From a virus (Duplodnaviria; Heunggongvirae; Uroviricota; Caudoviricetes), in IMG/VR virus record IMGVR_UViG_2534681979_000015, positions 1-5,194 of that record: a stretch of 5,194 nt of DNA. One strand, given 5' to 3'. The position numbers and the translations under genes were made by a program. Each line of letters begins with the position of its first letter. Position 1 is the stretch's first letter. Shown piece by piece: positions 631 through 745 of the stretch. The notes under the pieces were generated by a model. It did not search any database. It saw nothing but the letters and a program-made list of their open reading frames with translations, and was not told the DNA's origin.

Positions 631-660
631 TTGACAATGAGAATTGTTTTCATTTAAAAA
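631..660 (+). promoter_or_regulatory. Candidate sigma70 promoter on the plus strand (consensus -35 TTGACA, weak -10)
   Basis: TTGACA at 631-636; -10 candidates TTTAAA (653-658, 16-nt spacer) or TAAAAA (655-660, 18-nt spacer). Points rightward toward the plus-strand terminator at 709-745. The -10 is weak, so this is tentative. Confidence 0.3.
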
Positions 661-708
661 CCAATGTACGAAAGCATCTTTTCTTTACATTCTCCATTGG
701 GATTACCT

Positions 709-745
709 CCGCCAGCTTCCATTCCTGCCGCTGGCGGCTTTTTTT
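709..745 (+). terminator. Rho-independent terminator-like hairpin plus T7 run, plus-strand orientation
   Basis: Inverted repeat CCGCCAGC (709-716) / GCTGGCGG (730-737) with a 13-nt loop; alternative compact stem GCCG(727-730)-CTGG-CGGC(735-738). Followed by C then TTTTTTT (739-745). On the minus strand the T-run precedes the stem as an A-run, so it is oriented for plus-strand transcripts only. Confidence 0.5.

Follow-up and report, generated by a model that had tools for sequence, protein, structure and literature searches.

PasA and PasC of the enteropathogenic Escherichia coli strain E2348/69 are small non-coding RNAs (sRNAs) of 85 and 79 nucleotides (nt), encoded by prophages, the former having also a minor 236-nt read-through form (Pearl Mizrahi et al., 2021, PMC8550237, Table S6). 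Their genes lie between a SASA-family esterase gene and the next downstream gene, encoding a holin, and are antisense to both, in a "> < >" arrangement; both RNAs have been verified by Northern blot and depend on Hfq, holding ranks 12 and 17 among the hubs of interacting RNAs identified by ligation followed by sequencing (RIL-seq), PasA acting in trans as an Hfq sRNA, with RIL-seq partners numbering in the dozens (PMC8550237). A preprint gives the gene order as esterase, PasA, holin, lysozyme (Zhu, Shabalina & Storz 2026, 10.64898/2026.05.13.724894), and EcOnc51 and EcOnc52 are homologues of PasA and PasC in O157 (Tree et al., 2014, PMC4104026). Here we consider positions 631–745 on the plus strand of a 5,194-nt stretch (hereinafter, the window) comprising positions 1 to 5,194 of IMG/VR record IMGVR_UViG_2534681979_000015, a virus of the class Caudoviricetes. 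This segment, situated between nanS-p and a DUF1378 gene, both on the minus strand, is best read as a well-supported candidate sRNA gene, a new member of the prophage sRNAs of the PasA/PasC kind that run against late transcription.

The gene appears so far unreported. Its hairpin sequence was not found in print in the literature searched; a 2023 survey of nanS-p mentions DUF1378 and DUF826 and no RNA, and the Waters 2017 supplements on cross-linking, ligation and sequencing of hybrids (CLASH) mention only 5' sites of ECs1207 and not this RNA.

The elements of the predicted gene are as follows.

631–636, plus strand: –35 hexamer TTGACA of the proposed sRNA promoter, by direct reading
654–660, plus strand: –10-like A-rich box, TTAAAA at 654–659 with a 17-nt spacer or TAAAAA at 655–660 with an 18-nt spacer
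667–745, plus strand: predicted sRNA of about 79 nt, its 5' end placed at 666–668
691–697, plus strand: conserved TCTCCAT motif in the unstructured body, a candidate seed; the minus strand reads ATGGAGA
709–745, plus strand: intrinsic terminator, CCGCCAGC, 13-nt loop, GCTGGCGG, then C and T7

The first-pass annotation of the window had placed a perfect TTGACA and a hairpin with a T7 run at exactly these positions, and rereading of the sequence shows all these coordinates to be correct. It had also described the –10 box as weak; TAAAAA matches TATAAT at four of six positions, with T at –12 and A at –11 present. The 5' end of the RNA was inferred from this box and from PasA, whose 5' end, mapped by RNA-seq, lies 35 nt past the first T of TTGACA; the equivalent position in the window is 666. 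The hairpin starts 78 nt downstream of TTGACA and consists of an 8-bp G+C stem (CCGCCAGC at 709–716 and GCTGGCGG at 730–737), followed by C and T7 at 738–745; the terminator scan reports its inner five pairs. The RNAfold energy of 667–745 is –18.1 kcal/mol (z = –2.2), and the centroid fold comprises the terminator alone, leaving the body open and TCTCCAT unpaired. A covariance model built from the RNA family (R1) matches 663–745 at 103.7 bits. The 3' arm of the hairpin on the plus strand (730–737) is also one base off the Chi sequence GCTGGTGG.

To compare the unit across lineages, upstream DNA of 80 DUF1378 genes from IMG/VR was collected, giving 33 distinct spacer variants; three loci with DUF1378 only 58–62% identical in protein were added, and ten diverged lineages were tabulated. 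All ten retain TTGAC[A/T] (one further variant, L044, has TTAACT), carry T[T/A][A/G]AAA exactly 17 nt past the –35 hexamer, and have a G+C hairpin 66–82 nt past the hexamer followed by a run of six to eight T; the predicted RNA length ranges from 77 to 96 nt. Between these elements the sequence is free to vary. The 17-nt spacers are unrelated (the window and L211 are identical at 6 of 17 positions), five sequence types occur among the stems (the CCGCCAGC core, GCTCCCGGC, TGCCGCCGG and others), and in L037 three of the eight stem pairs are changed on both sides. The T run follows the hairpin on the plus strand only, and none is present after it on the minus strand in any lineage. Due to this strand specificity, the hairpin can be identified as an oriented plus-strand terminator rather than a stability hairpin of the late mRNA, and hence there must be transcription running into it. 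The –35 hexamer lies 15 to 26 nt from the DUF1378 ATG, depending on the lineage, and the flanks and the Shine-Dalgarno region differ as well, so the hexamer is not conserved as a part of the DUF1378 ribosome-binding site. In a single sequence TTGACA would be at chance level (four occurrences in the window against 3.65 expected), and it is the conservation across lineages that raises the feature above chance. Fixed promoter and terminator frames with everything in between free to change is, at the level of comparative sequence, the pattern of an sRNA gene.

The unit is present in all 79 DUF1378 loci with a complete spacer, as well as in the three distant loci. The window-type unit is found in 407 of 5,426 complete E. 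coli genomes (approximately 7.5%) and, by BLAST, in at least 136 phage records, mostly phages encoding Shiga toxin (Stx) of types Stx2a and Stx2c. The first-pass annotation had proposed a separate plus-strand unit, about 80 nt in length and bounded by a promoter and a terminator; this proposal gains strong support from comparative anatomy and from the PasA/PasC precedent, and transcription as a discrete RNA can be considered fairly probable. In one of the distant loci (L213, 1985–2503) the unit next to DUF1378 is followed by an insert of approximately 300 nt and a second terminator copy at the esterase stop codon, which points to a junction of recombination or insertion at the terminator. In the spacer of the IMG/VR locus L080 the RNA body combines Sakai-type with 933W-type segments as a mosaic, and the terminator loop is of the Sakai type, indicating recombination inside the sRNA gene.

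The stretch between the –35 hexamer and the terminator had been described as free of plus-strand open reading frames (ORFs). Three mechanical ORFs in fact cross it (627–782, 644–811 and 664–747), but none is preceded by a Shine-Dalgarno sequence and their starts are not conserved, so that the stretch is non-coding in practice. The shortest of the three, encoding 27 amino acids at 664–747, was considered as a coding candidate and rejected, as its ATG at 664 is lost in most variants.

The predicted RNA is complementary to the minus strand 55–133 nt upstream of the DUF1378 start (position 612), as had been claimed, with the ribosome-binding site remaining outside. The complementary region contains a minus-strand upstream ORF (uORF) within 650–697, with ATG at 697–695 and a strong Shine-Dalgarno sequence GGAGG (the complement of 706–710), half of which lies in the hairpin arm. 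The uORF start is kept, and the peptide varies from 4 to 25 amino acids with shifting stops and is unrelated between variants; given this range of lengths, a conserved peptide was rejected. ATGGAG is retained in 32 of 33 spacer variants, L037 among them though it cannot otherwise be aligned, and this conservation may instead reflect UCUCCAU of the sRNA, for which a seed function seems plausible. The A run of the –10-like box (656–660; homologous positions in L009–L088) varies from A5 to A7 among near-identical variants, shifting both the promoter-to-start geometry and the frame and stop of the uORF.

The loci of PasA, PasC, EcOnc51 and EcOnc52 have the same build: TTGACA, 17 nt, TCAGAA or TGAAAA, a body of approximately 28–45 nt, GCCAGC...GCTGGC and T7, the hexamer at this 17-nt spacing being TCAGAA in PasA and PasC. 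In prophages PP2 of E2348/69 and Sp12 of Sakai, units of this architecture are situated at the esterase/holin junction in the absence of DUF1378. Both prophages contain two promoter–terminator units in tandem (L005, 2465–2740, minus strand, and L008, 1915–2185, plus strand), PasA/EcOnc51 being followed by an EcOnc52/PasC-like unit that adjoins the esterase stop codon; the tandem arrangement accounts for the 236-nt minor form of PasA.

The window RNA thus shares with PasA and PasC the slot between the esterase and the lysis cassette, the orientation against late transcription, TTGACA followed after 17 nt by an A-rich hexamer, and the position of the terminator, which coincides with the esterase stop codon or lies close to it. 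The lengths are also similar (79–85 nt for PasA/PasC, approximately 79 nt predicted here), and in all cases an unstructured body precedes a hairpin of the GCCAGC...GCTGGC type with U7. On the other hand, the body sequences are unrelated, the downstream neighbors are DUF1378 and DUF826 rather than the holin directly, and expression and Hfq dependence, which have been demonstrated for PasA and PasC, are predictions for the window RNA.

Sequence tests have little power to decide on the relatedness of such genes. The covariance model run on the PasA, PasC and EcOnc loci, which derives from 19 family members, misses the units of L211 and L215 at E ≤ 0.01, though these adjoin true DUF1378 orthologues, and this makes the tests powerless either way. 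A covariance-model match was rejected as a proof of homology; the unrelated terminator of PasD2 is matched equally well. In global alignments with shuffles, whole units yield z of 3–4, due to the promoter and terminator. BLAST from PasC retrieves 28 phage records, mostly Stx1a phages as well as H-19B, 434 and 2B8, none of them among the 136 or more records with the window-type unit. The PasA/PasC seed, GCCAGCACCU, overlaps the 5' arm of the terminator; the respective segment of the window, GCCAGCTTCC (711–720), is identical to it at 7 of 10 positions, the GCCAGC part being generic. Rfam release 15 has no match in 613–750 at E ≤ 1, and PasA and PasC likewise have no Rfam family. The window RNA is, judging by these comparisons, of the same kind and in the same slot as PasA and PasC; the comparisons do not demonstrate homology. 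It is presumably none of the published variants. EcOnc51 appears to be the "PasA-2" of the preprint, given an identical 3' end, divergent first 40 nt and prevalence in sequence type ST11. The criterion of the 2026 survey was BLAST-detectable similarity to PasA/PasC, which the window RNA does not have. Such surveys miss positional counterparts with replaced bodies, and the published distribution of the PasA/PasC class is therefore probably underestimated.

Other sRNAs of lambdoid prophages are comparable in part. AsxR and AgvB (Rfam RF02703 and RF02702) are, like the window RNA, short prophage sRNAs of the late region, antisense to late genes; they lie downstream of PR' and combine a conserved 3' terminator module with a variable 5' seed. 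They differ from it in the slot (between stx2B and nanS-p), in length (51–60 nt) and in having a proper –10 box, TAAAAT, and show no sequence similarity to it; their sponge function has been demonstrated. AsxR is present in the same window and, as a known sRNA in antisense orientation, was counted in favor of the sRNA interpretation. OOP and paQ of phage lambda are short antisense RNAs with constitutive promoters inside a lambdoid operon, OOP at the 3' end of cII and paQ within Q; the mRNA that they overlap is affected in cis, and their cis targets have been demonstrated. They occupy different places and are unrelated to the window RNA in sequence; OOP is also described in a preprint (10.1101/2024.10.31.621285).

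Based on these comparisons, we consider it reasonably probable that 631–745 constitutes a self-contained gene whose product is a non-coding sRNA about 80 nt long, the counterpart of PasA and PasC, likely pairing in trans with the help of Hfq. A sigma-70-type promoter, with a consensus –35 and an imperfect A-rich –10 box, placed back-to-back with the DUF1378 start, would fire against late transcription, and the transcript would end at the Rho-independent terminator abutting the nanS-p stop codon. In lambdoid and Stx prophages carrying DUF1378 this RNA would take the slot held elsewhere by PasA, PasC, EcOnc51 and EcOnc52. By analogy with these, it may be expressed from the prophage, bind Hfq via the hairpin and U tail, and pair in trans with mRNAs or other sRNAs, using the 5' arm of the terminator together with its unstructured C/U-rich body (conserved UCUCCAU). 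A possible secondary effect is action in cis on read-through into the lysis genes, given its perfect complementarity to the part of the late transcript that joins nanS-p to DUF1378.

Several observations weigh against this interpretation. The –10 box lacks the usually critical T at –7, and the consensus promoter scan makes no call here, the absence of this final T being the reason why a simple scan does not report the promoter. Alignments of the body with PasA and PasC are at the noise level (z ≤ 1.4), the cross-matches of the covariance model to EcOnc52-type units reach only E of about 0.02–0.04 and are driven by the terminator, and the GCCAG/CTGGC stem shared with PasA/PasC is a generic terminator motif occurring in unrelated bacteria: a scan with the CCGCCAG...CTGGCGG-T6 pattern yields at least 120 terminators that are unrelated and come from many phyla. 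Direct evidence that the RNA is expressed was not found. Its copy in prophage Sp5 of O157 Sakai (NC_002695.2, 1272086–1272170, minus strand), downstream of nanS-p split by IS629, has no peak in the list of 63 candidate sRNAs obtained in that strain by cross-linking to Hfq with cDNA analysis (Hfq-CRAC; Tree et al., 2014, Table S2), and the same list does include the PasA-like EcOnc51 and EcOnc52; the absence of a peak could be explained by multi-copy mapping or low expression. Further, when the RNA body was compared by duplex prediction with the initiation regions of stx2A, stx2B, nanS-p, DUF1378 and DUF826, and with the 3' end of nanS-p, no significant target emerged among the genes of the window and nothing exceeded the shuffles; the best prediction was DUF826 (z = –2.4 in seven tests). 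The IS629 insertion in nanS-p of Sp5 (L216/L217, NC_002695.2, 1270503–1271812) also causes the coordinates of phage VT2-Sakai and of the Sakai chromosome to differ by approximately 1.3 kb downstream.

The RNA could also be real and have its main role locally, which is compatible with a trans function. Through head-on transcription, and through an 80-bp duplex formed with the late or read-through transcript (from Pstx or nanS-p), the unit would then cause cleavage or interference, so that DUF1378, DUF826, holin and lysozyme stay silent in lysogens, comparably to lambda OOP or paQ. Indeed, the spacer to which the RNA is perfectly complementary is the sole one between nanS-p and the lysis-side genes, the terminator scan of the window found no minus-strand intrinsic terminator between them, the complementary stretch covers the strong Shine-Dalgarno sequence and ATG of the uORF, and the first lysis-side gene, be it DUF1378 or holin, has a unit of the same architecture in front of it. 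However, the closest analogue that has been verified, PasA, has numerous partners in trans on Hfq, and in E2348/69 more than 200 nt separate it from the holin start downstream; the complete change of the body between lineages fits cis pairing and yields no positive evidence for it. A predominantly local guard is thus, in our opinion, unlikely. An extended variant combines both modes of action: a conserved "sRNA slot" at the junction of the esterase and the lysis cassette, where the frames are kept and the body of about 45 nt is swapped or shuffled by recombination, would allow different lineages to plug different RNAs into the Hfq network of the host, and would at the same time lock the lysis genes, by antisense, against read-through. 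Such a lock would be a body-independent safeguard of the holin, in this respect resembling a type I toxin–antitoxin system. Taken with all its components, this combination seems rather unlikely.

The opposite possibility is that no sRNA exists, and the hairpin with the T run is a module-boundary terminator for stray antisense transcription from downstream plus-strand morons or a recombination junction, the conservation of TTGACA and the A-rich box having other causes, e.g., their being a part of the 5' untranslated region of DUF1378. Homology between prophages with the SASA esterase and those with DUF6645 does break exactly at the T run, the second terminator copy of L213 stands at the esterase stop beyond the insert, and the poor –10 box and the missing Hfq-CRAC peak at Sp5 point in the same direction. 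Still, the perfect –35 at a fixed 17 nt from the A-rich hexamer has survived turnover of both the spacer and the Shine-Dalgarno region, the promoter-to-terminator distance is within the sRNA range (77–96 nt) in every lineage, similarly built promoters demonstrably yield PasA and PasC, and the promoter scan detects no other plus-strand promoter-like site in 1–630; we find this possibility quite improbable. The first-pass annotation had also compared the layout to type I toxin–antitoxin loci such as tisB/istR and zor/orz, DUF1378 being the candidate membrane toxin and the divergent sRNA the antitoxin pairing with its 5' leader. Certain features recall tisB/istR-1, zorO/orzO and hok/mok/sok: a small gene encoding a hydrophobic protein (60 amino acids, a single predicted N-terminal membrane helix, a charged tail) adjoins a divergent RNA complementary to its leader, the unit accompanies DUF1378 at every locus with a complete spacer, and the Shine-Dalgarno sequence and ATG of the uORF in the complementary region are reminiscent of the mok/hok/sok arrangement. 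But in every context examined DUF1378 does not stand alone: it is the second gene of a co-directional late block, 25–40 nt from DUF826, with the fixed order esterase/DUF6645, DUF1378, DUF826, holin, lysozyme. No promoter of its own was found, the promoter scan showing no minus-strand promoter-like site in 613–750, and it has no toxin annotation in Pfam or PHROGs. The RNA leaves the Shine-Dalgarno sequence and AUG of DUF1378 uncovered and covers no conserved coupled ORF; the uORF has no fixed stop, and with its length varying as well a hok/mok-like coupling is probably not conserved. Finally, the same architecture occurs without DUF1378 in the PasA/PasC loci, and PasA acts in trans. The comparison to type I modules is hence not supported, and we consider such a function very improbable.

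Among the carriers of Shiga toxin, the Stx2a and Stx2c phages matter most clinically, and their known sRNAs, AsxR, StxS and EcOnc27/STnc100, affect haem use, toxin output and host physiology. The predicted sRNA gene is situated at the entrance of the lysis cassette in most Stx2 phages. If expressed, its RNA would be an additional candidate regulator in the circuit timing the release of the toxin; if not, the finding amounts to an ordinary conserved boundary terminator.

The window covers the late region of a Stx2 lambdoid prophage, shown as the reverse complement, with the late genes on the minus strand; 600–760 is 100% identical to prophage DNA of E. coli O104:H4. The neighboring features are listed below.

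159–404, minus strand: DUF826 gene, one of the late genes
430–612, minus strand: DUF1378 gene (Pfam PF07125, E = 1e-35; PHROG 494, function unknown)
751–2661, minus strand: nanS-p, SASA-family sialate O-acetylesterase, from the ORF list and the annotation as SASA family esterase in identical DNA
2813–2865, plus strand: AsxR (Rfam), between stx2B and nanS-p
2867–3072, minus strand: STnc100/EcOnc27 (Rfam), between stx2B and nanS-p
3147–3416, minus strand: stx2B, late gene
3428–4387, minus strand: stx2A, late gene
4478–4739: tRNAs
4789–5190: DNA methyltransferase fragment

The order around the RNA is nanS-p (minus strand), RNA (plus strand), DUF1378 (minus strand), DUF826 and holin, the RNA being antisense to both its neighbors. 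DUF1378, the divergent neighbor, is the first gene of the lysis-side module, and nanS-p is the convergent one, its stop codon lying 5 nt past the T run; where prophages differ in the upstream gene (SASA esterase or DUF6645), their homology breaks at approximately 746–750. By a HMMER-based search, the DUF1378 family is limited to Escherichia and Shigella, and a protein-guided scan of one genome per species for DUF1378 gave no match. AsxR and STnc100/EcOnc27 form a known convergent sRNA pair, with full-length Rfam matches of 88 and 208 bits.

Among the tRNAs, ARAGORN calls an 89-nt tRNA-Lys(ctt) at 4568–4656 on the minus strand, between two ordinary phage tRNAs. This sequence has no match to the Rfam tRNA model at E ≤ 1, and its anticodon-arm-like stem is, by eye, unusually long, approximately 9 bp.
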